A DNA stretch of 64,000 nt from positions 122-64,121 of the forward strand of contig JACPOZ010000006.1 of NCBI GenBank assembly GCA_016191235.1, in the 5' to 3' direction. Below the pieces are notes generated by a model. The model saw nothing but the letters and a program-made list of their open reading frames with translations. It was not told where the DNA came from and made no database searches. A program made the position numbers and the translations under genes. Numbering within the stretch: position 1 is the first letter of the stretch; each line of letters starts with the position of its first letter. The DNA is from Gammaproteobacteria bacterium (lineage in GTDB: Bacteria > Pseudomonadota > Gammaproteobacteria > Ga0077554 > Ga007554). This document shows positions 5,272-32,447 of this stretch, piece after piece.

Positions 5272-7716
<2,445 letters not shown>

Positions 7717-7764
7717 CTATACCTGGAAGCGTATTGTAACATATTGTTACTGTGTAGAATCCTG

Positions 7765-8847
7765 TCAAAAAGTCCGTTCCGTCACTACGCCGTGTTCCAC
7801 GTGGAACATCTTCCTCCCGGCTATTTCCGGCACATGGATCAATTCTCTATCCGTGGTCGTTACCATTATCTGTGCGTCAAGCTCACAGAGTAGATCTATC
7901 AATTTTCTTCGGTGTTGTGTATCCAACTCGGCAGGCAGATCATCCACCAAAATAATGCACTGGCGTTGTGCGCGAACTTTTAGAAGCGCGGCCTGCGCTA
8001 GATACATTGCGCATATCAGTAATTTTTGCTGCCCCCCCGAGGTGTATTCCTGCGCAGGCTTGCCGGCAACCTCAATCATAACGTCGGCGCGGTGCGGACC
8101 CCTGCTGGTATAGCCAAGCGATCGGTCTTTTTCCAGCGAACGCGCCAGCACCTCACGATATTCGGCATCCTGAGCCCAACCGCGCAAATAACGCAGCGAC
8201 ACCCCTTCAAGAGGAAGCAGCTTTTCCACAAACCCAACGAACAACGGCAAGTAATCACGCAGGTATTCACGCCTGAGTGAATCTATTCGGCTTGCGCTTT
8301 CCTGCAACTCCATACTCCACACATCTTCCGGCATGGAACGGCCAGAACAGCGCAACGATGCATTCCTTTGTTTAAGGGCGCGGCAATAGCGCGCCCAGAC
8401 AGGCATAAAGGCATGTTCCACGTGGAACACACCCCAGTCCATAAAGCGGCGGCGCTGCCGTGGACCCAGGGTTAGTATTTTGTGGCTGTCGGGGTTAATT
8501 AGAAGAAGCGGTAGATGAGTGACGAGATCCGAGGTGCGCTCCAGCGTCTGCCCCGCCGCACGCATGCGCATCTTTTCCGCCATATATTCAATGCCCAGCG
8601 GAATACGCTGCTCAGCACTAATGTTCACCTGACCAACTACAGTAAAACCGTCTGCGCCCTTGCTGATAACATTCTGGATATGAGAGGAACGAAAAGAACG
8701 CGCCCGCCCCAGCAGGTAAATAGCCTCCAAAAGACTTGTTTTACCGCTGGCGTTAACGCCATGAATAATATTCAGGCACGGGGCAGGTTCGATATGGGTC
8801 TCGGCAAGATTCCGGACGTTTTTGATATAAAGGGAGGCCAGGCTCAT
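7765..8847 (-). CDS. recF: DNA replication/repair protein RecF
   Basis: GVNASGKT, GPHRAD and SGGQQK; lies between dnaN and gyrB. Confidence 0.97.
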   Translation of the reverse strand: MSLASLYIKNVRNLAETHIEPAPCLNIIHGVNASGKTSLLEAIYLLGRARSFRSSHIQNVISKGADGFTVVGQVNISAEQRIPLGIEYMAEKMRMRAAGQTLERTSDLVTHLPLLLINPDSHKILTLGPRQRRRFMDWGVFHVEHAFMPVWARYCRALKQRNASLRCSGRSMPEDVWSMELQESASRIDSLRREYLRDYLPLFVGFVEKLLPLEGVSLRYLRGWAQDAEYREVLARSLEKDRSLGYTSRGPHRADVMIEVAGKPAQEYTSGGQQKLLICAMYLAQAALLKVRAQRQCIILVDDLPAELDTQHRRKLIDLLCELDAQIMVTTTDRELIHVPEIAGRKMFHVEHGVVTERTF

Positions 8848-8900
8848 TAAAAATAATCTAGCCTGAATGTTCCAAGCTGAAAATAAGCATTATCCGGGTA

Positions 8901-10001
8901 TTACAGCCGCATCGGCATCACAACGTACTTGCAGTGCTCCATGCCGACACCTTGTATCAAACAACAGCTATTGGCATCCGAAAGCACCAGCTGCGCCTGC
9001 GCTCCGGTAACGGCAGAAAGCGCGTCTATCACGTAACTTACGTTAAAGCCAATTTCCAGGGTATCGCCCTGATAGTCGACAGCGACTTCTTCTTCCGCTT
9101 CTTCCTGCTCCGGGTTGTGGGCAAAGATGCGCAGGCTACCTTTCGCCAACTGGAAGCGCACGCTACGGTGTTTTTCATTGGAAAGAATCGAAGCACGCAC
9201 CAACGCCTGTTTGAGCGTTTCCTTGTCACTGATGACGAGTTTGTCGCCGCCCTGCGGTACAACGCGCTGATAGTCGGGGAAGCGTCCATCGATCAGTTTG
9301 GAGGTAAAGCTTATCTCCGGTGTTGAAAGCTGGATATGGTTGGCGCCAAGTTGGACCTGGATCATCCGATCCGAATCCTCAAGCAACCGCGACAGTTCTT
9401 GTATACCCTTCCTCGGTATAATGATCTGTTGGATTTCTGAGACTTTTATATCGACATCGGCATCACACAGTGCGAGTCGGTGGCCGTCGGTAGCGACCGT
9501 GCGCAACCTGCCATCGGCAATCTCCAACAACAGCCCATTCAGGTAATAGCGAATATCCTGTTGCGCCATCGCAAAGCCTGTCCGGTCAATGAGATTTTTC
9601 AAGACATTTTGTGCAACGGAAAAACTGATCACTTCACTGAATGAACCGATATTCGGAAATTCGGCTGCAGGTAGTGTAGACAGGGTAAAACGGCTCTTGC
9701 CGGAACGGATCACTGTACGCTCACCTTCTACCGTGAGTTCCACTTGGGCCTGTTCGGGCAAGGCGCGGCAGATATCCAGGAACTTACGTGCAGGCAAGGT
9801 AGTTTCACCAGCCTCGGAACCGTCGAATTGAGTACGTGCCGTCATCTCGATTTCGAGATCTGTCGCCGTAAGAGACAACCCCTCCCTATCAGCCTTGAGC
9901 AGCACGTTGGACAGAATGGGTAAGGTCTGCCTGCGTTCCACAACACCACAGACCAATTGAAGCGGTTTCAACAAGTTTTCGCGCTGTATTGTGAGTTTCA
10001 T
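8901..10001 (-). CDS. dnaN: DNA polymerase III beta clamp
   Basis: ATDLE, ATDGHRL and VVMPMRL. Confidence 0.99.
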   Translation of the reverse strand: MKLTIQRENLLKPLQLVCGVVERRQTLPILSNVLLKADREGLSLTATDLEIEMTARTQFDGSEAGETTLPARKFLDICRALPEQAQVELTVEGERTVIRSGKSRFTLSTLPAAEFPNIGSFSEVISFSVAQNVLKNLIDRTGFAMAQQDIRYYLNGLLLEIADGRLRTVATDGHRLALCDADVDIKVSEIQQIIIPRKGIQELSRLLEDSDRMIQVQLGANHIQLSTPEISFTSKLIDGRFPDYQRVVPQGGDKLVISDKETLKQALVRASILSNEKHRSVRFQLAKGSLRIFAHNPEQEEAEEEVAVDYQGDTLEIGFNVSYVIDALSAVTGAQAQLVLSDANSCCLIQGVGMEHCKYVVMPMRL

Positions 10002-20905: not shown

Positions 20906-21913
20906 ATGCAAAACGGCACTACCCTTAACCAGTTTCTTATCGAAGAACGGCGCCGCCTGGGTGGCACGGACAGCGATCTCCCAGCGCTGATCAACGACAT
21001 TGCCGTCGCGTGCAAGCGCTTGTCCTATGTGATCAGCCAGGGCGCATTGGTTGGCGTGCTGGGCAGCGCGGGCAGCGAGAACGTGCAGGGCGAGACACAG
21101 AAGAAACTGGATGTGCTCTCCAACGACATCATGATCGAGGCCGCTCAGCGTGGCGGCTATCTTGCAGGCATGGCCTCGGAAGAGATGGATGACCTATACC
21201 CCATCCCCGCCGAGTACCCAAAAGGCAAGTACCTGTTGATGTTCGATCCGTTGGACGGCTCCTCCAACATCGACGTCAATATCTCCGTCGGCACCATCTT
21301 CTCCGTTCTGCGCTGCCCGGAAGGCGTAACCAATCCCGCCGTCGCTGATTTCATGCAGCCCGGCACCCAGCAGGTATGCGCTGGTTATGCGCTCTATGGC
21401 CCCTCCACCCTGCTGGTGCTGACCACCGGCCATGGCGTCAACTGCTTCACATTGGACCACAACGTCGGCGAGTTCGTGCTGACCCAGCCGAACATGCGCA
21501 TTCCCGAGGATACCCGTGAATTCGCTATCAACGCCTCGAACGCACGCTTCTGGGAAAAGCCTGTAAAGCGTTATGTCGACGAATGCGTGGCAGGCAAAGA
21601 AGGGCCGCGCAAGGAAAACTTCAACATGCGCTGGGTCGCCTCCATGGTCGCCGAAGTTCACCGCATCCTCACCCGCGGCGGTATCTTCATGTATCCGCGC
21701 GACACCAAGGACCCCTCCAAGGCTGGCAAGCTGCGCCTGATGTATGAGGCCAACCCCATGTCCTTCATCGTCGAGCAGGCGGGCGGAGCGAGCTCCACAG
21801 GCCGCGAACGTATCCAGGAAGTGCCGCCCACCGGACTGCACCAGCGCGTTGCCGTGATTCTTGGCTCCAAGAACGAAGTCGAGCGCGTTGTGGCGTACCA
21901 CAAAGAAGGTTGA
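20906..21913 (+). CDS. fbp: Class 1 fructose-1,6-bisphosphatase
   Basis: FDPLDGSSN and [11 protein letters not shown]. Confidence 0.97.
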
Positions 21914-21926
21914 TGTGACCTCATTA

Positions 21927-21962
21927 GAAGGGGCGGAGTGCATTCGCCCCTTCCCCTGTTTT
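21927..21962 (+). terminator. Hairpin after fbp, probable terminator
   Basis: GAAGGGGCG...CGCCCCTTC followed by a T run. Confidence 0.55.
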
Positions 21963-21992
21963 TAGGTTTAATCCCAGCACTGTTCACTTAAC

Positions 21993-22023
21993 GTAGGTTG
22001 GGTCAAGCGAAGCGGACCCAACA
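21993..22023 (+). repeat. GTAG-type REP-like palindrome
   Basis: GTAG followed by GTTGGGTC-AAGCGAAGCG-GACCCAAC. Confidence 0.6.
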
Positions 22024-22066
22024 GTGTACCCGTGAAGCCCAGTTTGGGAATTTAAGAGAAATCGCC

Positions 22067-22101
22067 TTGACAGGCACCTTCCATAGACGGTAAAGTGCGC
22101 G
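22067..22101 (+). promoter_or_regulatory. Sigma70 promoter of the tRNA operon
   Basis: TTGACA-N18-TAAAGT followed by a GC-rich discriminator GCGCG. Confidence 0.6.
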
Positions 22102-22113
22102 TCTAATTTTTGA

Positions 22114-22189
<76 letters not shown>

Positions 22190-22234
22190 AGTTTCAAAGG
22201 TTGGTCTAACCGCCTTTTTGTTGAAGCCGTTTAC

Positions 22235-22311
22235 GTCCCCATCGTCTAGCCGGCCTAGGACATCGCCCTTTCACGGCGGTAACAGGGGTTCGAATCCCCT
22301 TGGGGACGCCA
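22235..22311 (+). tRNA. tRNA-Glu(TTC), integration target
   Basis: GTCCCCATCGTCTAG...CTTTCAC...GTTCGAATC...GGGGACGCCA. Confidence 0.97.
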
Positions 22312-22356
22312 TATAAATCAAAGGGTTAGGAAGACTTAGCCCTTCTTCTTTCGCCG

Positions 22357-22376
22357 GTGCCAAACTGCTGCCAAAC
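22357..22376 (+). repeat. Probable integrase arm-type sites (TGCCAAAC twice)
   Basis: GTGCCAAACTGCTGCCAAAC; same doublet at 29951-29970 and a variant at 30171-30189. Confidence 0.7.
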
Positions 22377-22653
22377 GAGCGTTGTTGGCGGCGCTGTCCA
22401 GTCGTTCGGCCAGCAGGTTCACGGTTTCCCGTGCAGCACTGTCAGGATAACGATCCACTTCTTTCCAGTCGGGTGAAATGTCGGGGCATACCATTAGCCA
22501 ATGTTCCCCCCTAAAAACTTCAGTATGATAATTTAATAATTATTCATGCCGAGTTCCAAAACCTGGCTGTGCAAAAATCTGTCTATACGCACGCTTTTGG
22601 TGAATAAGCTGTAGAGTTTAATACCCCCGGGGGGTAGCCCCATTCTAAATTCT

Positions 22654-23307
22654 CTACAACTCGATTTTGCGAAACAGATTCAATTCATCGCCGATACCCC
22701 CCAACGCACCTTCAATCATCGACATTCGCTGTCGAATTCTGTCCAGCGATATGTCGACATGTGCATCATGTACGATTGTCAGCCGCTTATAGGTGCGTAT
22801 GTGCATTCCCTTCGGCTTGATGCCATGCCCGTTCAAGATGCCCGGTTCCCACTTAAGCCGATCCCGAATTTTGTCTGCCCGCCGCGTTGCGCGGTCATCC
22901 AGGTTTTCCCGCTGACAGTGATAGGCCAGCCGGTAGCAGTGCCGACAGGCGAATATAGTGCCACCGTAGAGAATAGCCACCCGACGCCCACAGCCGTCGG
23001 CAGGACAGCGGAACCATGCCCGCATCCCGCCGTAATTGCAGGCTGTCCATTCGACCCGAACGGGGTAGTTCTCACTCTTCCATTCATCGTCGCCGCGCTG
23101 GTGCCTGTAGTCGAGAATCACCCGGTCAGCCTCCATCCTAACGTTAATAGATGCCACCTTTTCGCCATTGCGCGTCCAGCTCCAGCCGAATGATCGCCCC
23201 GCTGACAACAGGCCGTCTCGTTGCAAGCGCCGCACATCCAGTGCGCGGTAATCACCCGTTGTGTTCTTCCCGCCTTGATCCCGCCGTCCGCTACCCATTC
23301 CGCCCAT
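22654..23307 (-). CDS. Uncharacterised Cys-rich (putative Zn-binding) element protein
   Basis: MGGMGSGR start; CPADGC...CRHC cysteine pairs; 217 aa. Confidence 0.75.
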   Translation of the reverse strand: MGGMGSGRRDQGGKNTTGDYRALDVRRLQRDGLLSAGRSFGWSWTRNGEKVASINVRMEADRVILDYRHQRGDDEWKSENYPVRVEWTACNYGGMRAWFRCPADGCGRRVAILYGGTIFACRHCYRLAYHCQRENLDDRATRRADKIRDRLKWEPGILNGHGIKPKGMHIRTYKRLTIVHDAHVDISLDRIRQRMSMIEGALGGIGDELNLFRKIEL

Positions 23308-23452
23308 TTTTTCACTCTCCGATTTTGCCTAAATCATTAGGCAAGTTTAGCCAAATGCACATTTACATTGCTGCCGAAAACCTACCAAACCTATGAGCCG
23401 CCTACGTTTCAGGCGTGTGGCATGATGCAATTATTTCGCTGATTTGTTGATA

Positions 23453-24271
23453 TTAACGCCCATTGCGTAGCTCTTTCAGCTTCAAAAGCATGGCTAAAGT
23501 GCGTTCAAACTTGCGGTCAAGATGCGTTTCATAGCGATTGAGCTTCTCCAGCTTGTATGCCTGTAAGCCTTCGCCCAGCGTTTGTGCCTTGATCGCCTCA
23601 TGGTGGCGAGCTTCCTTTTCCATGCCCATGCACAGCGGTTCCAGATGCTCGTGTATGAAATCCACCAGACCTTCGGCTGTTGCGGTGTATTCCTCTTCCT
23701 CGACATACTGTAGCCACCAGTCGCGGGAATCCGGCAGCAGTGCGCGCAAGGCTTTGTCATAGGCATTCGCGCCGCCACGCCGCAAGATTGCCGATGCCTT
23801 CTGCGTCGCCTCCAGATCGTGCCGCGTATTCCGCTGGCGCTCGGCGATTTCTTCCGTAGTCATGTCCATCAGATCGCGCAGGTCGGTGCTCTTGCCGGAT
23901 AGCCCGAACTCGAACGGTGCCGCCGCCGGGATCACGCCCTCGGCATTCCGTGCTGAACCTTTCAACCCCTGATTGATATTCGCGCCTTCGGCCAACAGCA
24001 CCCGCCGCTTGCGCCAAATGATTGAGGCAAGCTCTTCGATCAGATGCCGTTCGGTCATGCCTGCCGGTCGGTGTTCCTCGATCAGCGCCGCCAGCAGGTC
24101 AGTAAATTCGCCATGATCTTCATGAGCCAGCACCACCAGCCGGGAAAGGATGCCGTGCTTCATGGCGTTGAAGCGCACGGCCTCATAGCTGGCCTTCGGT
24201 GCTTCGGTGTCAGTCGTCGAACAGGATGTCACGGCGGAATCGCTCAGTAGTTCAGCTTCAAGTATTTGCAT
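23453..24271 (-). CDS. Uncharacterised helical protein with NAMKHG motif
   Basis: 272-aa ORF with RBS, co-oriented with the replication genes. Confidence 0.75.
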   Translation of the reverse strand: MQILEAELLSDSAVTSCSTTDTEAPKASYEAVRFNAMKHGILSRLVVLAHEDHGEFTDLLAALIEEHRPAGMTERHLIEELASIIWRKRRVLLAEGANINQGLKGSARNAEGVIPAAAPFEFGLSGKSTDLRDLMDMTTEEIAERQRNTRHDLEATQKASAILRRGGANAYDKALRALLPDSRDWWLQYVEEEEYTATAEGLVDFIHEHLEPLCMGMEKEARHHEAIKAQTLGEGLQAYKLEKLNRYETHLDRKFERTLAMLLKLKELRNGR

Positions 24272-24286
24272 GATTTCCCCCTTCCT

Positions 24287-24652
24287 CTAGTGCGTCGCCT
24301 GCCCGTGGATTAACGCCAGCAAGCGCCACGGGTCATACTTCGCCTTGTCTATCAGCATTTCCAAGGTCGCCACATGGCGGATAGCAATCGCCAGAATGAC
24401 GTTATGCGGGTCGCTGTCCGTGTCGGCGTAGAATGCCCGTTGTATATCGGGAGTCTCTTCCAGCAGGGTAATGACTTTTTGCCGCCGGGTTTCCCGTTGT
24501 AGCTCGGCCAGTATTTCCGTCTTGCTTTGCTTGAGTTGCTGCACCATCTCGGGTGACAGGTTGTCAGCGGGTGAAATATCCAGATAGCCGCCATCCGCAA
24601 CAATCGAACATCCCTTGCGCCGTAGTTCAAGAATCAACTCAAGTGCGCCCAT
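24287..24652 (-). CDS. Hypothetical protein downstream of the primase
   Basis: 121-aa ORF 2 nt from the upstream stop; N-terminus resembles small docking-type domains seen beside element primases. Confidence 0.6.
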   Translation of the reverse strand: MGALELILELRRKGCSIVADGGYLDISPADNLSPEMVQQLKQSKTEILAELQRETRRQKVITLLEETPDIQRAFYADTDSDPHNVILAIAIRHVATLEMLIDKAKYDPWRLLALIHGQATH

Positions 24653-24654
24653 GA

Positions 24655-26816
24655 TTAAACCCTCAAGTGAGAAAGGTTAGGTACGGTGGTTGCGGTGGAA
24701 TCCTCCCGAAGGGGTTCAAATTTCCCGAAGGGGTTCACACTATTTTGTTGAACCTCTTCGGCCCCTTCGTGAACCCCTTCGTATTTTCCACCGGGCAAGC
24801 TCCAAAACCAAACGCCTTTCATGCCATCTTTTTTCGATACTACGCCCAGCCGTTTCTTTGCCCTCTTGATAGTGGAAAGCGAAAAACCTGCGCCTTTGCA
24901 TTCCTGCTCAAGTTCTTTTTGTGCCACCGCTCCATCGGCTAGCGCATCACGCAGAAATGCTTCTACACTTGCTCCATCGCTTTCATCTTCTCCGGTGTTT
25001 TCAGCCAGCAATTCAGCCGCTGTTCCGTCCACCGCTTGACCCCAAGCGCATAACTGGAGAAAACGCCCTTGTGGTCGTCAAGTTCTTTCTGGTGCAGGTC
25101 ATATTCAAAGCCGCCGCTGTCCAGGCCGATATTGCTTTTCGCCCGGCAAAATATCCGTTTAACCTTGCCGCCTTCATTGATCTTGCCTGTTGCCAATACC
25201 ACCCGCGCCAATGCAGCGAAGGCCAGGGAGCCGGTTACCCTCTCCATCGGGTCTTTGCCGCCCGTCCCTTTGGAAAAGTGAGAAATACCTAACACGGCAC
25301 AATCCAGCTTTTCACCAAAATCAACCAGGGGTTGCAATGCCCGCCGCACCTCGCCGTTTTTGTGGCTGTCACCCGCAACCGCGTTGACAACAGGATCAAC
25401 CAATAACAAAACAACATCGCCAATCCTTTCGGCAGCATCCATCATGGCCTTAATGTCCGTCGCCGGATCAAAGCTGCGTACCTCACCCCGGTGTTGAACA
25501 TCGCCGATAAAATGCACCTTTGCCATATCCGCGCCAGCGGCAAGCAATCTCGGCACCAGCGTATCTTTCGCGCTATCTTCTCCTGACCATATCAGCACGT
25601 TACCCACGGGTGCGCGCGTACCGTCTGGAAAGCGCCCGCCGATGCTTACCGTTGCGGCGAGGGCTATTGCAATTGTGGTTTTACCAGTACCAGCTTGTCC
25701 TGCGAAAATATGGAATTTTCCACGCGCTAACCACCCATCCCATAACCAGCGGATTGGTTCGGGCTTGATGTTGGCAGCACACGTTATCTGCACCTGTGGG
25801 ATGTTTGCCTTGTGCGCTCCTACAGCGTCGCCCGTTGTGTTTGTTTGTTCCGGCAGGGTCATTGCATCGCCCGAAGTTAAAGCGCCCGTTATGGCGTGCT
25901 TGACGGCTTCCAGCCCTTGAGCTTGATGCAGGTCGTTAAAGTCGGTCGCGCCATCCGGTCGGTTAGTGCCAAAGTCTGGGATAGCCAGCAGTCCGCCCAC
26001 AGATCGCGCCGCCTCAGTGGCCTTGGTCAATCCGGGGTTACCCTCGGTTTGGTAATCATCATCGGCGCACAGTATCACGGGCGGGGCGGGGAATTTCTCG
26101 CGCATGGTCTTTGCCACCGCCAGCAGGTTACCAGCATTGAAGGCCACCGCTACCGGGTAGCCCGTGGCTTCGTGGATGGTCGCGCCCGTTGCAAAGCCTT
26201 CGGCAATACACAGCGCCGCCGCACCTTTCGTGGTGCCGATACTGAAATAACAGCCCGCCACGCGCCCGCCGGTTAAAAACTTCTTGTCGCCATTGGCTTC
26301 GATGAATTGCAGGGAATACAGATCACCATCGGCACGTAGGGGGATCACCAGCGCCCCGTTGTACAGGCGTGCCCCGTTGGCCTTGATACGCTTGCGCACA
26401 AGGTAGGGATGATCGTCTGGGGCGGGTCGTGCAGCTCTCCATGTGGTAGCCGCTCTTGTCGCCGCCCCAGCGCGTGCTTGTTCGCGTTCGGCCTCGGCTT
26501 CCAGTGCCTTGCGTTCCCGCTCGGCGACTTCCTCCGGTGTCTGCTTCTGGTGCGTTCCATCATCGCGCCAGCCGTTCGCCTTGGCTTCATGGAACAGCGT
26601 CCCGATCGTCACCCTGCCATCGGCCCGGATGCCCTTCCACACGGCGCGGGCGTCTTGGTCGTTGTAGCTTTCGTCTTGCTGGCTCCATTCGCTCCACAGG
26701 TCAAAGCCGGTATCGCCAAGATCGGACTTGATCGCCATGCCCATCTTCACCCAGGTATCGCGGTCACTGGTTGGAATGAAATGCAGGGCTTCCCTGGTGC
26801 GGTTAAGGCCATTCAT
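24655..26816 (-). pseudogene. Primase-helicase (PriCT-2 + TOPRIM + RepA-like AAA) with a frameshift near 25045
   Basis: RDTWVKMGMA...WSEWS, AEGFATG/CADDD/DFNDL, Walker A GQAGTGKT, LVDP and HFSK; C-terminus continues in ORF 24655-25032. Confidence 0.82.
24705..24781. repeat. Iteron-like array, candidate element origin
   Basis: CCCGAAGGGGTTCA twice (24705, 24724), short AT-rich spacer, then inverted copies TGAACCTCTTCG, GCCCCTTCG and TGAACCCCTTCG. Confidence 0.7.
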
Positions 26817-27224
26817 GCCGCACCCACTTTGCCAGTCATCAAAACATACAGCCCTGGCGCCAGCCATGGAAGCGACGCGTAAGCGAGCGATGGCTGGCAA
26901 CCCCCGGATAGCCTAGGGCGTCCTGTTTTGTCGGAGTCTGCGCGAGAGCGCAGGCGTAGACAAAATGGGATGCCAACGAAAGGCGTAGAGTCATTGTGGT
27001 AGCTGTGGTGCGCTGCGTAGTCGCGCGCCGCTGCGGACGCAGGACGGTCCGGGCTGCCGAAGGCATGGTTGCCGCCGAGCGCAGGCGTTTTGGGACAGGG
27101 TTGTCCCAAAATGTATACCGAGCACGGCGGCAACGGGATTGTTTGCGGTAGAATTGTGCGTGTCAGCTACACAACTTCCGCGCCCCTTCATTGGGGCGTT
27201 TTCTTTTCTGGTCATGGCGCCCCC

Positions 27225-27416
27225 TTAAACTTGCGGGTTACGAACGCGCGAATCTACCCAGCCAGCAACATCAGCAGCGCGCCAAGCAACAGCTCGCACG
27301 CCTAGATTTATCGGGGCAGGGAATTCACCAGCTTTAATTTTTGCGTAGATGGTAGAGCGCCCAAGGCCAGTTATTTCACGGACTTGAGGCAGGCGGAACA
27401 GCTTGTTATCTGACAT
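27225..27416 (-). CDS. alpA: AlpA-family regulator/excisionase
   Basis: RLPQVREITGLGRSTIY...FPAPINLGVRAVAW. Confidence 0.93.
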   Translation of the reverse strand: MSDNKLFRLPQVREITGLGRSTIYAKIKAGEFPAPINLGVRAVAWRAADVAGWVDSRVRNPQV

Positions 27417-27484
27417 TTTGTTATCCTAAATTAATAGTTTTCAAAATGCCGAAGGCTGGGGTGTATTGGGGGCATGAAAATGTA

Positions 27485-27513
27485 TTGACATTTTACCAAT
27501 ATCAAGCTATATT
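27485..27513 (+). promoter_or_regulatory. Near-consensus sigma70 promoter divergent from alpA
   Basis: TTGACA-N17-TATATT. Confidence 0.7.
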
Positions 27514-27519
27514 GTACAC

Positions 27520-27648
27520 ACAGTGTTCGTTAAATGAATTTAACCTCACTGTTTGGGAATCCGTCATAAGAAACCCCCCTGTCCTTCGGCTGCTTAGCTA
27601 AGGTCAACAAAACCCCGCGCCCTAGTGAAGCACGGGGTTTTGTCTTTC
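27520..27648 (+). ncRNA. Candidate small RNA (~125 nt)
   Basis: Lies between the promoter and a terminator; 5' stem ACAGTG..GTTAAA/TTTAAC..CACTGT; only an 11-codon ORF without RBS. Confidence 0.45.
27607..27648 (+). terminator. Intrinsic terminator, possibly bidirectional
   Basis: ACAAAACCCCG...CGGGGTTTTGT followed by CTTTC. Confidence 0.7.
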
Positions 27649-27865
27649 TGTCCTCAGCGTCTCGTATCAAATGGCTGTGACCACAGTCTTGTGGTTTCCC
27701 AGCGCATCCAATAGAACATAGTGTACCATACTTGCGTCCTATATGGATTGGTTTCAGCGCGCCATCATAAATCTGATTATTATTAGATAGTTAATGCGGT
27801 CTTGCGAGTTTTTTGCGGATCATATTTCCCGGTGTTCGCCCCGTCGGGCTAGGCGCGGCAAACCA

Positions 27866-28192
27866 TCAAGCCGCGTTCCGCTCCGTGCTCACCCCAATCG
27901 AAATGCCTTCCGATGCTTGCAACACCTTTAACACCTCAACGAAATGGCCGATGCTGGGATTGCCGCGTTGACCCAGCATGCGGTGTAGACTCTTTGCGGG
28001 TATGCCGGTGCGTTCTGCCAGCGCTTCAAAGCCGACGGTGGCGTTGATGTAATCACGCAACATGGCCTTGCCTGCATCCAGGTCACCCTCTAAGAAATGA
28101 GTGATGGCCTCGGAGAGCATGGCTTCCCGAAAGGTGCGGTCGCGTTGTGCGCGGGCCATTACGGTGTCTCGAAATGCTTTGGTCAGTGCCAT
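27866..28192 (-). CDS. HTH antitoxin (addiction module antidote type)
   Basis: LRDYINATVGF..LAERTGIPAKSLHRML...GNPS; directly downstream of the toxin. Confidence 0.85.
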   Translation of the reverse strand: MALTKAFRDTVMARAQRDRTFREAMLSEAITHFLEGDLDAGKAMLRDYINATVGFEALAERTGIPAKSLHRMLGQRGNPSIGHFVEVLKVLQASEGISIGVSTERNAA

Positions 28193-28194
28193 GG

Positions 28195-28524
28195 TTACCT
28201 CGTTTCGCGTTTGCGGTGCTTGTAGTCTTGCCAGCGGGCTTGCGCCTCGGCAATGTCTTTGTCTTGGCGCTGCTTGGTTCCGCCAGCCAGGAGCAGGATG
28301 AACCGGTCGGCCTCGCGCCCGAAATAGAGGCGATACCCTGGCCCAAAGTGAATGCGGCGCTCGAACACGCCGCCGCCCACGCCTTTCACCTCGGACTGGT
28401 TTCCCTGTTCCAGTTGATAAAGGGCGGAGACCACTTTGGCGGCCGCGCGGGCATCCAGGTCATCAAACCAGCGGCCAAAGGGAGAGCAGCCGTGTTTGTC
28501 CAGGTATTCTTGAACTATGGTCAT
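28195..28524 (-). CDS. RelE/HigB-like toxin (addiction module killer type)
   Basis: SPFGRWFDDL, RIHFGPGYRLY and LLAGGTKQRQDKDI. Confidence 0.9.
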   Translation of the reverse strand: MTIVQEYLDKHGCSPFGRWFDDLDARAAAKVVSALYQLEQGNQSEVKGVGGGVFERRIHFGPGYRLYFGREADRFILLLAGGTKQRQDKDIAEAQARWQDYKHRKRETR

Positions 28525-28673
28525 CTTATGGTAACTTATCGGTTACTAAGTAACAAGCTGAAGGGTGGGCGTGTTTTCTTCGGCGCGTCCTTTGTCTTGG
28601 GCGGCGCCATCATGCAGCCGTATAACCTCCGCACCAGCTTTCAGCTTGTCCAGATAGTCCGCCCATTGCTGCA

Positions 28674-29939
28674 TCATCGTATCGCTTGCACTTTACTTGC
28701 TGATTTGTGTCCAAAACTCGGCAAGAGTGTCTGGACGGCATTCTTCAAGGTCTGGTCGCACAAGTGGGCGTAATGCCTTGACGTAATGCGAGTGTCAGAG
28801 TGTCCCAGCAGTTTTGAGATAGTCAGCAAGTCAGCTCCCGCCTGGGCAAGCAATGAAGCATAAGTATGGCGCAGTTCGTGAAACCCTATCTCAGGTTCGA
28901 TCTTCGCAATGGCGCAAGACTGTTTCAGCAAGCGTGAGTAGTGATTCTTTCCCCAGGGTGTACCGTCTTCGCGGGTGAAGACCGGCTCCTTGCCCGATCT
29001 GCCAGCGATTTGAGACTTGAAGAAGTCCAGCCCTTCGGCAGACAGCGGGACATGACGACCCCGGCCTGATTTGGCCTCTGGTGAAACATAGATCATGCCG
29101 GTATCTGTGTTTACGTCAGCAACACACAAGCGGGCAAGTTCGCTGTAACGTGCGCCGGTGAACAGCGCTGATTTCACCAGTTGGCGAAAATCGGGACGGC
29201 AGGTATTTATCAGGCGTGTGCATTCTGCTTCTGTGAGAAAGCGGGTAATGGGTTCGTCGGCATTGGCAAACGGTTTTACGCGCCGCCACGCGGCATTGTC
29301 GGGAATAAGTTCGTCTTGAAAGGCTTTGTTAAGAATCGCCTTGAGAACGGTCAATATGCGGTTGGCTGTCGATTTGCGTGAGCGCTTTTGTCCCTCGGTA
29401 ACCGGCTTGTCTTTGTAGGCGGGTTTTGCGCCGGTACGGACGCGAACGCGGGCGGGTTGAGCCGCCAGGGTGTTGTGCCAGTGTCGTATCTCGTGGGTGC
29501 TGATCTCGGTGATTAGCCGGTTGTTGAAGTGGGGGAGAATATGGGCCTTGATGGTGGTTTCAGTTTCTTTATAGGCTCGGCGGTGTTCCCGATACCATTT
29601 CAAATAACGCTCGACGGCCTCGGCTACGGTGACAGGCCTTAGGGTGACCTTGGGGTTTGTGATTTCTTCAATAAACGCCCTTGCCAAGTCTTGGGCTTGA
29701 ATGAAGCTCAATACGTCCACGCCGTTGGTGTCACGGTGGTCGTCAGCCACCCCCAGCTTCCGGTAGTGGTATTGGGTGCCGTCCCAGATGCGGGCCTGCC
29801 ATGTACCGAAGCCCTCCCCGGTTCGCCGGTAGCCAAGCGCCACCCCTTCGCAAATGGTCACAAAATTGCGGCTACCGATGGGGAGCTTGAGCCGCGCCGT
29901 CCGGGTTTCCAGCTTTACTGATCGCTGTGATCTTGCCAT
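28674..29939 (-). CDS. int: Tyrosine integrase
   Basis: TGARYSEL, HELRHTYAS and LLGHS...HY catalytic motifs; next to the att repeat. Confidence 0.95.
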   Translation of the reverse strand: MARSQRSVKLETRTARLKLPIGSRNFVTICEGVALGYRRTGEGFGTWQARIWDGTQYHYRKLGVADDHRDTNGVDVLSFIQAQDLARAFIEEITNPKVTLRPVTVAEAVERYLKWYREHRRAYKETETTIKAHILPHFNNRLITEISTHEIRHWHNTLAAQPARVRVRTGAKPAYKDKPVTEGQKRSRKSTANRILTVLKAILNKAFQDELIPDNAAWRRVKPFANADEPITRFLTEAECTRLINTCRPDFRQLVKSALFTGARYSELARLCVADVNTDTGMIYVSPEAKSGRGRHVPLSAEGLDFFKSQIAGRSGKEPVFTREDGTPWGKNHYSRLLKQSCAIAKIEPEIGFHELRHTYASLLAQAGADLLTISKLLGHSDTRITSRHYAHLCDQTLKNAVQTLLPSFGHKSASKVQAIR

Positions 29940-30400
29940 GGTGGGTCTCCGTGCCAAACTGGTGCCAAACTGATGGCGCTGGATTAGCTTAGACCTTGTT
30001 GGACGACAAATCAAGCAACTATTTGATAAATAAATGATTGGTGTTGTCCGGCGAAGTCCAGGATAGTCCATGAGGCGGCTCTTTCACAGCGGTAACAGGG
30101 GTTCGAATCCCCTTGGGGACGCCATATTAAATCAAAGGGTTAGGCGAGCCTAACCCTTTTTCTTTTGCCAGTGTCAAACGGTGCCAAACAAGCGTTGTCG
30201 GCATATGTGTCAGGCGTCGCTATCTGCCTCGCCTGTCACATCGGTCACGCCAACATCATCAGGCTCATCGTAAGCGTAGCCTGTCGCGTCCCAGACAGCG
30301 AGGCGCACCAGGAACGCATCAAAGCTCTTTACTGGCACCTCCGCCATATGATCCCACCAGCTCGCGTGATATGCGAGCCGGTTCGTTGCCGTCACTTTCG

Positions 30401-31852
30401 TTACTTTGACTCCTGTTTGCGGCGGACCACGAAGCTCACCACGCCAAGGCCCGCCAGCATCATCGCGTAGGTGTTCGCCTCCGGAACGGCCGCGATATTT
30501 TGAGCCGTATAGATAGTGGCAGCGCCCGTACCCAGGGCGGAGGTACCCATATCCGCATTGCTTACGGCGAAGACATAGAAGTTGTTCGGACCGGAGGTGG
30601 CGGGGTCAAAGTCATTGTCGTTGGTCATGTACAGCGTATGCCTGCCGTCTGCCAAATCCTGGCCGAATGCGAAACCCTCGATCTTGGATGGAATTTGCGT
30701 GTCGGCGATGCCTTTAGCATTGAGCGCGGCTCTCACGTCCAAAAACAAGGTCTTGCTCACTGCGGGGGTTGACGTGGTGAGACTGGCCACGCCGCTCACA
30801 TCCGTAGCACCGGCAATGTCGATCTTGAACAGTTGTTTGACGGAGGCGGCAGAGCCGTCGCCCAGGCCCTTGCCGTCACGTTCGTCGACCAGGAACTCAT
30901 GATCGTTGATGGCAACGATTTCGCTCACGCCTGTACCGTTCGTCAATCTATAGCCGTATTCTTTCGTGGCCCCTGTCGCGATATCAATCGTGACGAGCCG
31001 GAGTTGTTTGCCGGCATCCTGAAGCAAGGGCGCCTGCATGACACCCACCAAGGTCTTTCCGTCCGGCGTGATCGCCAGACCTTCCATGCCCTTGTTGGCT
31101 ACCCGGCCTGACGTGTTAGTGGGAGAAACCTCTGAAGCGGTCGTGGGTCCCTGGATTGCCACGGCGAGATTGCCAGGGAGCGCAAAAGACTTGATGCGCT
31201 GGCCGGTGGCACGATCAAACTGATAAACGTAAGGGCCATATTCGTCGGAAACAAAAATGCTCTTGCCGTCGTTGGAGACGCGCACGCCCTCGGGATCAAG
31301 CCGGGCATTGTTGGGATTGCTTGAAGGTAGGGTGGGGTTGAAGCCATCCGAGCGGCCGGTGAAGTAATTGGTGCCGTTGATGGCGTTCAAAGCCGGCACG
31401 CCGCTGCCCAGCGTATGAGTAGCATCGGTCCCTAAGGCGCCTGTACCGTAGGTAAGCGGGGTCGCGCTCGACAGCAAGGTGGTCTTGGTCAGCGTCGGCG
31501 TGAGGTTATACGCTAGGCCAGGGCCTGCATTCACCGTCAGGTTCATGCTGATCGTTTGGAAGCGGTCGATGTAGGAGGTGGTATCACCCACCAGTGGATT
31601 ATATGCAAGGGCATTGGGACCACGGTCTGGCAGGGCTAGGAAAGTGTTGCCCCCTGCCCATGCAAAGCCGGAACCCAAGCCGCCGAGCAGATTGCCGGCG
31701 ACACCGTTCTCAAGCAAGCCGGCCGTCTCCGTTGACATGTCCTGAACGCTGCCGCTCAGGCTGCCAATTGCGATCAGATCGATACTTGCATGGGCCGCAG
31801 TCGTGGAACAAATCGAGGCTATGAGAACAGGTAGTAGCGATTTTCTTTTCAT
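30401..31852 (-). CDS. Phytase-like esterase family protein with PEP-CTERM sorting tail
   Basis: Signal peptide; DRGP, DPEG, SDEYGP, NKGMEG, KIEG and NDNDF motifs; tail VPEANTYAMMLAGLG...RRK. Confidence 0.88.
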   Translation of the reverse strand: MKRKSLLPVLIASICSTTAAHASIDLIAIGSLSGSVQDMSTETAGLLENGVAGNLLGGLGSGFAWAGGNTFLALPDRGPNALAYNPLVGDTTSYIDRFQTISMNLTVNAGPGLAYNLTPTLTKTTLLSSATPLTYGTGALGTDATHTLGSGVPALNAINGTNYFTGRSDGFNPTLPSSNPNNARLDPEGVRVSNDGKSIFVSDEYGPYVYQFDRATGQRIKSFALPGNLAVAIQGPTTASEVSPTNTSGRVANKGMEGLAITPDGKTLVGVMQAPLLQDAGKQLRLVTIDIATGATKEYGYRLTNGTGVSEIVAINDHEFLVDERDGKGLGDGSAASVKQLFKIDIAGATDVSGVASLTTSTPAVSKTLFLDVRAALNAKGIADTQIPSKIEGFAFGQDLADGRHTLYMTNDNDFDPATSGPNNFYVFAVSNADMGTSALGTGAATIYTAQNIAAVPEANTYAMMLAGLGVVSFVVRRKQESK

Positions 31853-32162
31853 TAGGTAGCTCCTTTTATATATTTAGTTTATTTGTCTGATGAGTTTTTG
31901 TGCGTTGTTAGCGAATAGTTAACACCTACTCCCCCAATTCTCGTGGGAGATTATTGCTGGCATGTGACACCGGCATGGTTCTTTTGGACTATGGACGGAA
32001 GATTTCTGGATCAGAGTTGCACCACATCCAAAAAAACCGGGTGGGGTAACCTGAGAGCAACGGACACTCATGATCCTAGAAACGGCAGTTGACCGCTTCC
32101 TTTGGCAGTGGGCAATATGTTTTAAGTGGACTTTTTCACGTCCTGCGGGTTCACCTGCTTGG

Positions 32163-32240
32163 TGAGTCCGCTACGGGATGGATTGCACAGAAAGGAGGAG
32201 AACATGAAAGAGAAGCAGCGCTACTCGCCGGAGTTCCGGG
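32163..32240 (+). pseudogene. IS3-family left-end/OrfA remnant
   Basis: TG start, AGGAG RBS, then MKEKQRYSPEFR, truncated. Confidence 0.5.
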
Positions 32241-32295
32241 CAGAAGGGTGCCGCCAACATGCGGTTCGGTTATGAAGACGGTAGGGGCTACGGCC

Positions 32296-32447
32296 ATGAG
32301 CAAACCGGCGCATCCCTATTTTGGCCATTGCTGCCCGGCGGAGATCATCGGTCACACTGCGTGGCTATAATTACCGTTTCACCCTGAGCTTTCGTGACGT
32401 GGATGAATTACTCGCCGCCCGGGGCATATTAGTGACCTGCGAGGCGA
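32296..32447 (+). pseudogene. IS6-family transposase N-terminal remnant
   Basis: PAEIIGHTAWL / YRFTLSFRDVDELLAARGILVT across a frameshift. Confidence 0.75.

Follow-up and report, generated by a model that had tools for sequence, protein, structure and literature searches.

The element described here resembles small, capsid-less integrative elements built around an integrase, an AlpA-type gene and a primase. According to the consulted sections of their description (PMC10803314), the PICMI of Vibrionaceae require no genes other than int, iolg, alpA and prim to be excised, replicated and transduced; excision is triggered by alpA alone, the elements are packaged as concatemers without capsid-remodelling genes, their primases match the DUF3987 or DUF5906 profiles, and a defence gene, up2, follows the primase. 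VEIMEs are capsid-less integrative elements found as concatemers in marine virions (PMC9618062, part consulted). In the SatelliteFinder survey of phage-inducible chromosomal islands (PICI), the consulted part of which requires at least four of five core components for Types A and B, more than 6000 loci that combine an integrase with AlpA and a primase were set aside as 'Type C PICI', which might be satellites, defective PICI or other mobile genetic elements (PMC10085698). We analysed one such locus in a stretch of 64,000 nucleotides (the window) of contig JACPOZ010000006.1, from the metagenome-assembled genome (MAG) GCA_016191235.1. We consider it fairly probable that the 7.8-kb insert at window positions 22313-30124 is an int-alpA-primase island integrated in tRNA-Glu, capable of integrating and replicating by itself and devoid of transfer machinery (a 'hitcher'). 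Its new content is a two-gene end module (o272-o217), a conserved motif and a link to plasmids. The locus provides a clean anatomy for one int-alpA-primase family outside the enterics and vibrios, with an att core and arm sites, a likely iteron origin inside the initiator gene, a two-gene end module and an operator-like motif.

A discrete island at the 3' end of tRNA-Glu

The integration target, the borders, the integrase and the putative arm sites are as follows (nt, nucleotides; ORF, open reading frame; TRF, Tandem Repeats Finder).

22235-22311, + strand: tRNA-Glu(ttc), the integration target (ARAGORN; Rfam, 57.9 bits)
22265-22317, no strand: attL core, a 53-nt direct repeat with 94% identity to 30078-30130
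30078-30130, no strand: attR core, the direct repeat formed by the displaced 3' fragment of tRNA-Glu (partial tRNA by Rfam at 30066-30121)
28674-29939 (ORF to 30071), - strand: tyrosine integrase (PF00589, 4.3e-30; PF14659; phrog_1, 2e-65)
22320-22390, + strand: P' arm, with a hairpin at 22320-22344, a GTGCCAAAC/CTGCCAAAC pair at 22357-22376 and then GAGCGTTGTTGGC
29951-29972, + strand: P arm, two copies of GTGCCAAACTG (TRF), 12 nt upstream of the likely integrase start

The insert is discrete and lies at the 3' end of tRNA-Glu, with fbp and tRNA-Ala on one side and kup on the other (the names fbp and kup were read from the ORFs). The att duplication noticed in a preliminary description of this DNA, made from the sequence alone, is confirmed; the 53-nt repeat duplicates the 3' part of the tRNA gene. 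The congener G004 carries an empty site: it is 100% identical to the window up to position 22312, continues with 228 unrelated bases, and matches the window again from 32448, at the 3' end of kup. Relative to G004, the window contains 10.1 kb of additional DNA, consisting of the element (22313-30124) and a second piece (30125-32447). Only 48 nt of att/tRNA sequence match the window at the empty sites of G004 and G002. A tRNA-integrating tyrosine-recombinase island is defined by an integrase, by direct repetition of the tRNA 3' end at its two borders and by a relative in which the site is empty, and the locus has all three features. The match to PF00589 confirmed the integrase named in the preliminary description; its start is likely M45, at 29939.

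Exact GTGCCAAAC is present in four copies in the window, all within tandem pairs (10-11-nt spacing) beside att cores, the pairs being located at 22357/22368, 29951/29962 and 30171/30181. When one mismatch was allowed, there were 17 matches in the window against a chance mean of 20.8, so the sequence is not enriched: the signal lies in its placement and not in its count. The block formed by the hairpin and the repeat pair to the right of the tRNA is 82-97% conserved beside tRNA-Glu in genomes G001, G003 and G008, and is missing at the empty sites of G004 and G002, indicating that it is element DNA and not host DNA. We infer that the repeat pairs are the arm sites of the integrase. Arm repeats had been reported at both ends of the element, and pairs do lie beside both cores; however, the pair that lies to the right of attR is part of another island, which has decayed. 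A 52-aa ORF at 22336-22494 is probably not a gene, as its matches elsewhere coincide with conserved P'-arm DNA.

The core genes and the genes between the core and tRNA-Glu were identified as follows.

27225-27416, - strand: alpA, of the excisionase or regulator family (PF05930, 2.5e-18; phrog_66)
24963-26816 (ORF to 26900), - strand: primase-helicase (PriCT_2, 1.1e-20; Toprim_3, 1.5e-10; AAA_25, 3.6e-36; phrog_2249, 3.7e-89)
24655-25032, - strand: 'o125', the C-terminal primase-helicase domain, here detached and out of frame, whereas relatives have it in frame with the primase
24287-24652, - strand: o121, a small protein with a TubC_N-like N-terminal domain (PF18563, 4e-8, 33.7 bits)
23453-24271, - strand: o272, an all-helical protein of 272 aa with conserved N-terminal NAMKHG and WRKRR motifs
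22654-23307, - strand: o217, the terminal gene, encoding 217 aa that comprise a beta domain, a zinc ribbon (CxxxxC...CxxC) and, at the C terminus, a long helix

From the far end towards tRNA-Glu, the order is integrase, toxin, antitoxin, alpA, primase-helicase and ORFs of 125, 121, 272 and 217 aa. The protein genes are on the - strand throughout the element, as first described, and AlpA was likewise recovered (PF05930). In Pfam, PHROGs and NCBIfam, none of the nine ORFs of the element matched a family of terminases (small or large), capsid or other packaging proteins, sid/psu-type proteins or repressors. The element is thus a compact int-alpA-primase island, and these results agree with the preliminary description, in which no terS, sid/psu, capsid or protein-repressor gene is recognizable. 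The three genes described there as unknown (o121, o272 and o217) indeed have no informative family: o272 and o217 had no match in Pfam, PHROGs, NCBIfam or PADLOC, and o121 had no PHROG match, TubC_N in Pfam being its sole family match. The 'cos-like' sequence of that description was not located in the element.

Comparison with described satellites

The element resembles PICMI in being a tiny int-alpA-primase island with co-directional genes, no capsid-remodelling genes and unknown accessory genes after the primase. Its int, alpA and primase genes, the co-localized set by which PICMI are recognized, lie within 3.3 kb, with the primase frameshifted. Other members of its family carry a gene of 265-267 aa without a family match that overlaps the first gene by 4 nt (gene clusters 9 and 7; 6922-8157 and 8154-8951 in locus L014), an arrangement like that of int and iolg in PICMI. 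The element differs from PICMI in its primase, which matches only PriCT_2, Toprim_3/4 and AAA_25 (Pfam, E<=0.01) and not DUF3987 or DUF5906, in its position in tRNA-Glu rather than next to fis, and in its host, a Gallionellaceae-like betaproteobacterium rather than a member of the Vibrionaceae. It also carries o272-o217 and a toxin-antitoxin (TA) cassette.

Besides int, alpA and primase, the components of PICI comprise a small terminase together with a gene for capsid morphogenesis or for the redirection of packaging. The element contains only the first three, which places it outside Types A and B and in Type C. Like 'Type C PICI', it combines an integrase with AlpA and a primase/replicase, and has nothing else recognizable; however, Type C is a bin rather than a family, whereas the family of the element can be defined by the o272-o217 module and the upstream motif. 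With P4, the element shares integration in a tRNA gene, int, alpA, a large primase-helicase with a C-terminal domain, iterons and possibly a small-RNA regulator; in P4, the iterons are located in or near the primase gene and the CI RNA is the small-RNA regulator. Nevertheless, psu, delta, sid and epsilon were not recognized in the element, its helicase is of another type and its host is not enterobacterial; P4-like elements add the psu-delta-sid operon, epsilon and alpha to alpA and int, whereas a primase is all that was recognized here besides int and alpA. No family from the marker sets of cfPICI (capsid, head-tail adaptor/connector and terL) or PLE was matched. VEIMEs are similar in being small integrative elements that combine an integrase with AlpA and a primase/helicase and no capsid genes, but they are marine and defined by concatemers in virions, whereas the element comes from groundwater or drinking water.

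The preliminary description had proposed an unclassified minimal satellite. The element does not fit cleanly into the P4-like, PICI A/B, cfPICI, PLE or PICMI groups, in agreement with this proposal, but PICMI, VEIMEs and 'Type C PICI' already cover elements of this kind. The satellite and hitcher literature was searched; o217 and o272, being nameless, fall outside that search.

The o272-o217 module and its relatives

Relatives of o217 are abundant: 2936 were found among 90%-identity clusters, and there were 13,776 representatives at 50% identity with E<=1e-3 (7744 at E<=1e-10). The protein is nearly always stand-alone, at about 200 aa; longer fused forms were limited to four singletons and are uninformative. 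For o272, 2077 relatives were found. One metagenome scan yielded 524 o217 relatives, the best 80 of which were kept, and the locus counts given below are drawn from these. In 47 of the 80 loci (32 of the 55 with at least 1 kb upstream), o272 lies directly upstream of o217 on the same strand, and in some loci a 183-aa gene takes its place. Gene order was compared over the 25 loci that extend at least 5.5 kb upstream. The arrangement that recurs begins with a first gene, often followed by a second one, and continues with alpA, the primase, a single small gene and finally o272 and o217. A primase cluster was present in 20 of these loci (11 PriCT_2/Toprim/AAA_25, seven RepB_primase-like and two DUF3987), and a cluster at the first-gene, or integrase, position in 17, five of them without a recognizable integrase domain (phrog_37634). 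The first gene of several relatives, encoding 405-411 aa, matched only this PHROG; Pfam Phage_integrase was matched only by first-gene cluster 4 (10 loci), with no match for clusters 9 and 10. The o121 gene follows the primase in L015, L017 and L019. Neither capsid nor terminase was found among the scanned cluster representatives, which cover 15 of the 30 largest clusters and leave out most single-locus ORFs. Of the 39 loci with at least 1.5 kb downstream, 11 have a tRNA gene no more than 2.5 kb downstream; these tRNAs are antisense and specific for Arg, Pro, Asn, Ser, Lys or Thr. The closest syntenic relative, L014, is from a Gallionellaceae MAG and is located beside tRNA-Arg, its o272 and o217 being 82% identical to those of the element.

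These comparisons indicate that o272-o217 is an end module common to hundreds of islands with other primases, first genes and tRNAs. The search for elements with the same gene set that had been recommended at the outset thus returned relatives with the same small set. A deleted or defective prophage was also considered and rejected: no structural or lysis genes were found in the element, and the 25 related loci are equally compact, with no such genes among their annotated clusters.

Upstream of o217 lies a conserved motif, the core of which is a palindrome.

23325-23344, - strand: palindrome TTGCCTAA-TGAT-TTAGGCAA, the core of a motif of ~26 nt and a candidate operator or cis site

The motif, with the pattern AAnTTGCCnAATGATTTnGGCAAAAT, is located ~30 nt upstream of the start codon of o217 and is followed by a GGAG; its nucleotide conservation exceeds that of the flanking genes. 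The palindrome has a single match in the window (chance expectation, 0.01), and its TGAT core is invariant in all 26 aligned sequences, including those from loci lacking o272. The strict motif was found upstream of o217 in 52 of the 80 metagenome loci, versus two other matches in 1.22 Mb, and the relaxed motif in 63, versus 16 other matches. It is kept from Beta- to Alphaproteobacteria. The motif is a candidate protein-binding site, because what is conserved is its sequence and not base pairing. Autoregulation by o217 through this motif would be the simplest guess, and o217, a zinc-ribbon protein with a tail that would form a coiled coil, most likely binds DNA in a sequence-specific manner and is tied to the replicon, being predicted either to regulate itself or to handle a cis site; a role in transfer is a guess.

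For the AlphaFold2 models of o217 (pLDDT 62) and o272 (pLDDT 73.7), fold searches remained at noise level with Foldseek against PDB and with VIA-align wide (both proteins) and with Foldseek against BFVD (o217), the best scores being a Foldseek E of 0.03 and Z of 5.4 and 8.0, on coiled coils. Profiles of PDB sequences gave nothing below E 0.36, and ESM Atlas yielded only unnamed clusters. The predicted complex of o272 with o217 scored 0.01, which speaks neither for nor against binding.

The o217 gene was also found on 29 plasmid records, 26 of them typed as non-mobilizable, whereas o272 had no plasmid match. On the three plasmids inspected (L143, NZ_CP010724.1; L144, NZ_CP081072.1; L145, NZ_CP026540.1), the o217 homologue follows a small DNA-binding gene, of the HTH_17 excisionase family on two and a winged-helix HTH_39 gene on the third (pDCAR2); Rep-like (PF23343, weak), winged helix-turn-helix or DEAD-like helicase genes also precede it. 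Phaeobacter piscinae pP18_i (NZ_CP010724.1) is one example, with an o217 homologue of 57% identity preceded by helix-turn-helix (HTH) and replication-type genes. Both roseobacter plasmids, from Phaeobacter and Leisingera, keep the motif at -32. Unlike the element, the o217 plasmids have their own Rep/ParA and a serine recombinase, and lack a tyrosine integrase, o272 and att sites. The o272 profile showed no similarity to the genes preceding o217 on the three plasmids (hhalign, probability below 1%). From its distribution, o217 appears to be linked to replicons, and to plasmids rather than phages. It ties the island family to small plasmids, such that its binding, and the need for it in replication, transfer or exclusion, become testable. 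It is conceivable, if unlikely, that o217 and the palindrome, often with o272 or the 183-aa alternative, mark a very large undescribed class of helper-dependent replicons comprising integrative islands, whose primases and tRNA targets are interchangeable, and small 'non-mobilizable' plasmids, in which o217, as a new kind of sequence-specific DNA handler, would hand the replicated element over to the packaging or transfer machine of a helper. If so, relaxase-less plasmids and capsid-less satellites of environmental Proteobacteria would share an unrecognized mobilization route.

The plasmid records also bear on the possibility that the island is an integrative element without its own relaxase that is mobilized by conjugation, with an origin of transfer (oriT) for a helper relaxase in the palindrome at 23325-23344 or in the following block.

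22534-22644, no strand: conserved non-coding block between o217 and the P' arm, with relatives in G001

This block is 74% identical over 115 nt to the element on contig C57 of G001 and 78% identical over 76 nt to that on contig C30. Many genomic islands lacking both a relaxase and mating-pair formation genes carry only an oriT, according to the consulted part of a preprint (bioRxiv 10.64898/2026.01.13.699239). The presence of conserved non-coding blocks and the occurrence of o217 relatives on small plasmids typed as non-mobilizable, which likewise need a helper, are consistent with this explanation. However, no relaxase, type IV coupling protein or known oriT was recognized in general library scans of the element, in which no oriT library was used, and AlpA together with a phage-type primase is, as two sources support to some extent (PMC10803314, PMC10085698), a hallmark of satellites and not of known integrative mobilizable elements. 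We regard mobilization of this type as improbable.

Alternatively, o272-o217 could be cargo, an anti-phage defence or addiction module, and the island a defence-carrying integrative element comparable to those with PICMI up2 or the P4 hotspots. As with up2 in PICMI (PMC10803314, sections consulted), the position that the module fills behind the primase is the terminal one, proximal to att. The island has also acquired a TA cassette, and neighbouring islands carry restriction-modification genes (a type I S subunit in L041 and an N6 methylase in cluster 8). No enzymatic domain was found in the module, and no PADLOC model was matched, a weak AAA match of the primase being all that PADLOC returned for the element. 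Defence cargo in satellite hotspots is usually variable. The o272-o217 module is constant across primases and tRNA targets, with a motif conserved between two classes of Proteobacteria, and its interpretation as cargo is accordingly doubtful.

Condition and mobility of this copy

Three features of the primase-helicase region concern the ability of the element to replicate.

24707-24781, no strand: candidate origin of replication, with iterons formed by four copies of the 12-mer CGAAGGGGTTCA, of which each orientation has two
25040-25046 (near 25043), - strand: 1-nt deletion (frameshift) in the primase gene, from alignment with L014, L015 and L017
26856-27132, + strand: 277-nt repeat resembling a miniature inverted-repeat transposable element (MITE), with copies elsewhere in the same MAG and in congeners

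The four CGAAGGGGTTCA copies lie within 75 nt, inside the ORF of the detached primase domain, and confirm the iterons mentioned in the preliminary description; block-shuffled sequences contained a mean of 0.23 such clusters, and a G001 relative keeps two exact copies. This pattern suggests that the region is likely to be the origin. Relatives align to the primase from residue 23-32, and its start is likely the ATG at 26816, because the first 15 codons of the ORF fall within the inserted repeat. In all seven relatives matching both parts (L013, L014, L015, L017, L018, L020 and L022), 'o125' is in frame with the primase. The fused primase-helicase of the preliminary description is therefore present in its PriCT_2, Toprim_3 and AAA_25 domains, but it is not intact, since the deletion near 25043 splits off the C-terminal domain, which retains an open frame with its own GTG start. 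The deletion was found in the same form as in the window in Logan contigs of runs X1 (401 nt) and X2 (782 nt), from two studies, with 0 differences each; the frameshift is thus real and not an assembly slip. Run X1 also contains a variant, 93% identical, in which an additional A follows 25043.

In the 277-nt repeat, two ends of a longer, multi-copy host element are joined, one of 59 nt and one of 227 nt with nested hairpins. Inserted between alpA and the primase, the repeat lies 40 nt upstream of the position at which the primase is likely to start. The same MAG contains copies on contigs C43, C6, C25, C50, C33, C19 and C38, all but one at, or no more than ~140 nt from, a contig end (the C38 copy is internal), and each of three congeners has 9-13 matches. 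The longer element breaks the MAG assembly, and short forms of it occur in congeners (for example, G003:C24:20149-20433). One X1 contig joins 26855 to 27132, skipping 276 nt, the letters between not being known, and a bump in depth over the repeat was seen in all four runs. No terminal inverted repeats were found in the 277-nt repeat, and no full-length copy of the longer element was recovered from the MAG or from G004. A DDE transposase fragment beside one copy in G004 seems to be unrelated to the repeat.

The second insertion is the TA cassette.

27865-28612, - strand: TA cassette of the RelE/HigA type, an insertion relative to kin
28195-28524, - strand: RelE/ParE-family toxin (TIGR02683, 93.2 bits against a cut-off of 62.85, 9.6e-27; phrog_3445)
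27866-28192, - strand: HTH antitoxin (weak: TIGR02684, 19.1 against a cut-off of 53.7; also phrog_4268)

A toxin above the cut-off and an adjacent downstream HTH antitoxin identify a type II RelE/ParE system of the HI1419/HI1420 type, and the TA pair of the preliminary description is thereby upheld. The flanks of the cassette are only 20 nt apart in the relative on contig C30 of G001, and contigs of run X3 skip 27863-28620 or nearby spans, so the pair is an inserted cassette. In the C30 relative, ~900 nt of coding sequence separate int from alpA, and the window element has no such gene.

By analogy with PICMI, AlpA would act with the integrase to excise a circle, the primase-helicase would fire the iteron origin, and a helper would move the multiplied circles or concatemers; the TA cassette may stabilize the island. 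Packaging by a phage helper, as in PICMI and VEIMEs, is the favoured route of transfer by this analogy, and a plausible one, if only tentatively so. Conjugative hitching seems an unlikely route, with the remainder left to an unknown route or to none that is dedicated. That the island is a true phage satellite, from a new minimal PICMI-like family, is a possibility that we entertain with reserve: a helper, possibly virulent, would induce alpA, leading to excision, replication and packaging of concatemers, with o272/o217 serving in helper hijack or the choice of what is packaged. The core and the gene order match those of PICMI and 'Type C PICI', and the size is 7.8 kb. The primase is of a phage type (phrog_2249), 118 phage records matching it with up to 40% identity over ~47-49% of the protein, and the constancy of o272-o217 while primase and first gene are exchanged would suit a function in the life cycle. 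Three IMG/VR loci have a relative of o217 or o272. One of them, L040, is a contig of 7422 nt with an exact terminal repeat of 127 nt, corresponding to a 7295-bp circle; its genes include alpA, a Toprim/DUF927 primase and one resembling o217 (35% identity), but its integrase is truncated. The second, an island, has two integrases together with alpA, a DUF3987 primase and a gene like o272, and the third is a prophage edge.

Several observations weigh against the interpretation of the insert as a working hitcher, and against a phage as its helper in particular. Neither o217 nor o272 had a match in 50,697 phage records or a relative in PHROGs, the three IMG/VR loci are the only ones found there, and IMG/VR membership is a classifier call and no proof of encapsidation; o217 is instead present on the 29 plasmid records. 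The modelled folds of o217 and o272, which might have pointed to their roles, did not rise above noise. No terS or pac was recognized in the element, and Phage_capsid, TerL_ATPase, GpA_ATPase and Phage_portal were not found in its own MAG, which is only 78.6% complete. The dependence on a phage helper suggested in the preliminary description is not borne out by these results. No packaged or excised form was seen: no contig in the four runs skips 22313-30124, although contigs alone cannot show rare junctions, and the stretches of the element that lack cover in X3 and X18 carry no weight either way. One X3 contig (depth 3.28) joins 29983 to 22264 with a short side of 34 nt and ~93 unaligned nt between; this joint may be attP or a variant attR, and the two cannot be told apart. 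Finally, an immobile remnant passed on by vertical inheritance would be just as compatible with the frameshift, the inserted repeat and the occurrence of identical copies in several metagenomes.

It is a serious possibility that this copy is indeed an inert, decaying remnant fixed in the host lineage, an explanation compatible with any interpretation of the family. The primase frameshift in contigs of two studies, the host repeat just upstream of the likely primase start, the lack of the gene that relatives carry between int and alpA, the location in an accretion zone with a decayed neighbour, and the lack of empty-site or circle contigs in the four runs are all consistent with it. Conversely, int and alpA are intact, as are the two att cores and the two arm pairs, a two-piece primase might work, given the open frame and GTG start of the detached domain, and rare excision would escape contigs. 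Replication of this copy is probably impaired, given the frameshifted primase and the MITE-like repeat that stands between the primase and alpA, and with the int-proximal gene missing as well, impaired autonomy is likely. Damaged and from an uncultured MAG, it is a poor experimental subject.

Promoter-like sites and a candidate small RNA

The region upstream of alpA contains putative regulatory sites.

27485-27518, no strand: overlapping divergent promoter-like sites, TTGACA-17-TATATT on the + strand and TGTACA-17-TAAAAT on the - strand towards alpA (consensus matches only)
27519-27650, + strand: candidate small RNA (sRNA) of ~130 nt, with a promoter and a terminator hairpin at 27607-27643 followed by a T-run

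The sigma-70-like promoter on the + strand (27485-27513) matches the consensus at 11 of 12 positions, and the one facing alpA is weaker. The predicted fold of the candidate has a minimum free energy of -41.5 kcal/mol (z, -3.64), better than that of all 200 shuffles. Features that fit the candidate sRNA named in the preliminary description are thus present, and we consider the + strand unit at 27519-27650 a fair sRNA candidate. It is not conserved in the C30 relative of G001, the only relative examined. Neither the candidate nor the inserted repeat matched an Rfam family in a scan of 21900-30500 (E<=1), which returned only tRNAs and chance matches, such as mir-350.

Neighbouring DNA

The second piece of DNA absent from the G004 empty site adjoins attR.

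30125-32447, no strand: decayed tandem island, outside the element

It comprises a P'-arm copy (30134-30189), a 61-aa ORF and a phytase-like PEP-CTERM gene (30401-31852; PF13449, PF07589); its short ORFs at ~32089-32447 may be IS3 OrfA and IS6 transposase fragments, judging from their translations. This island was absent from the preliminary description, as were the 1-nt deletion in the primase gene, the 277-nt repeat and the cassette status of the TA pair. tRNA-Glu is an accretion site in the genus, as G003 carries a different island at the same tRNA. The G003 island (L139, G003:C2:3500-16900) is ~9.5 kb long and has five large ORFs of 156-1005 aa, and a 3' fragment of an o217 gene adjoins kup; this locus is evidence of serial integration and decay at tRNA-Glu. 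Upstream of tRNA-Ala, at ~21973-22037, lies a repeat of ~50-60 nt resembling repetitive extragenic palindromic (REP) sequences, with dozens of 85-100% matches over genomes G000-G004.

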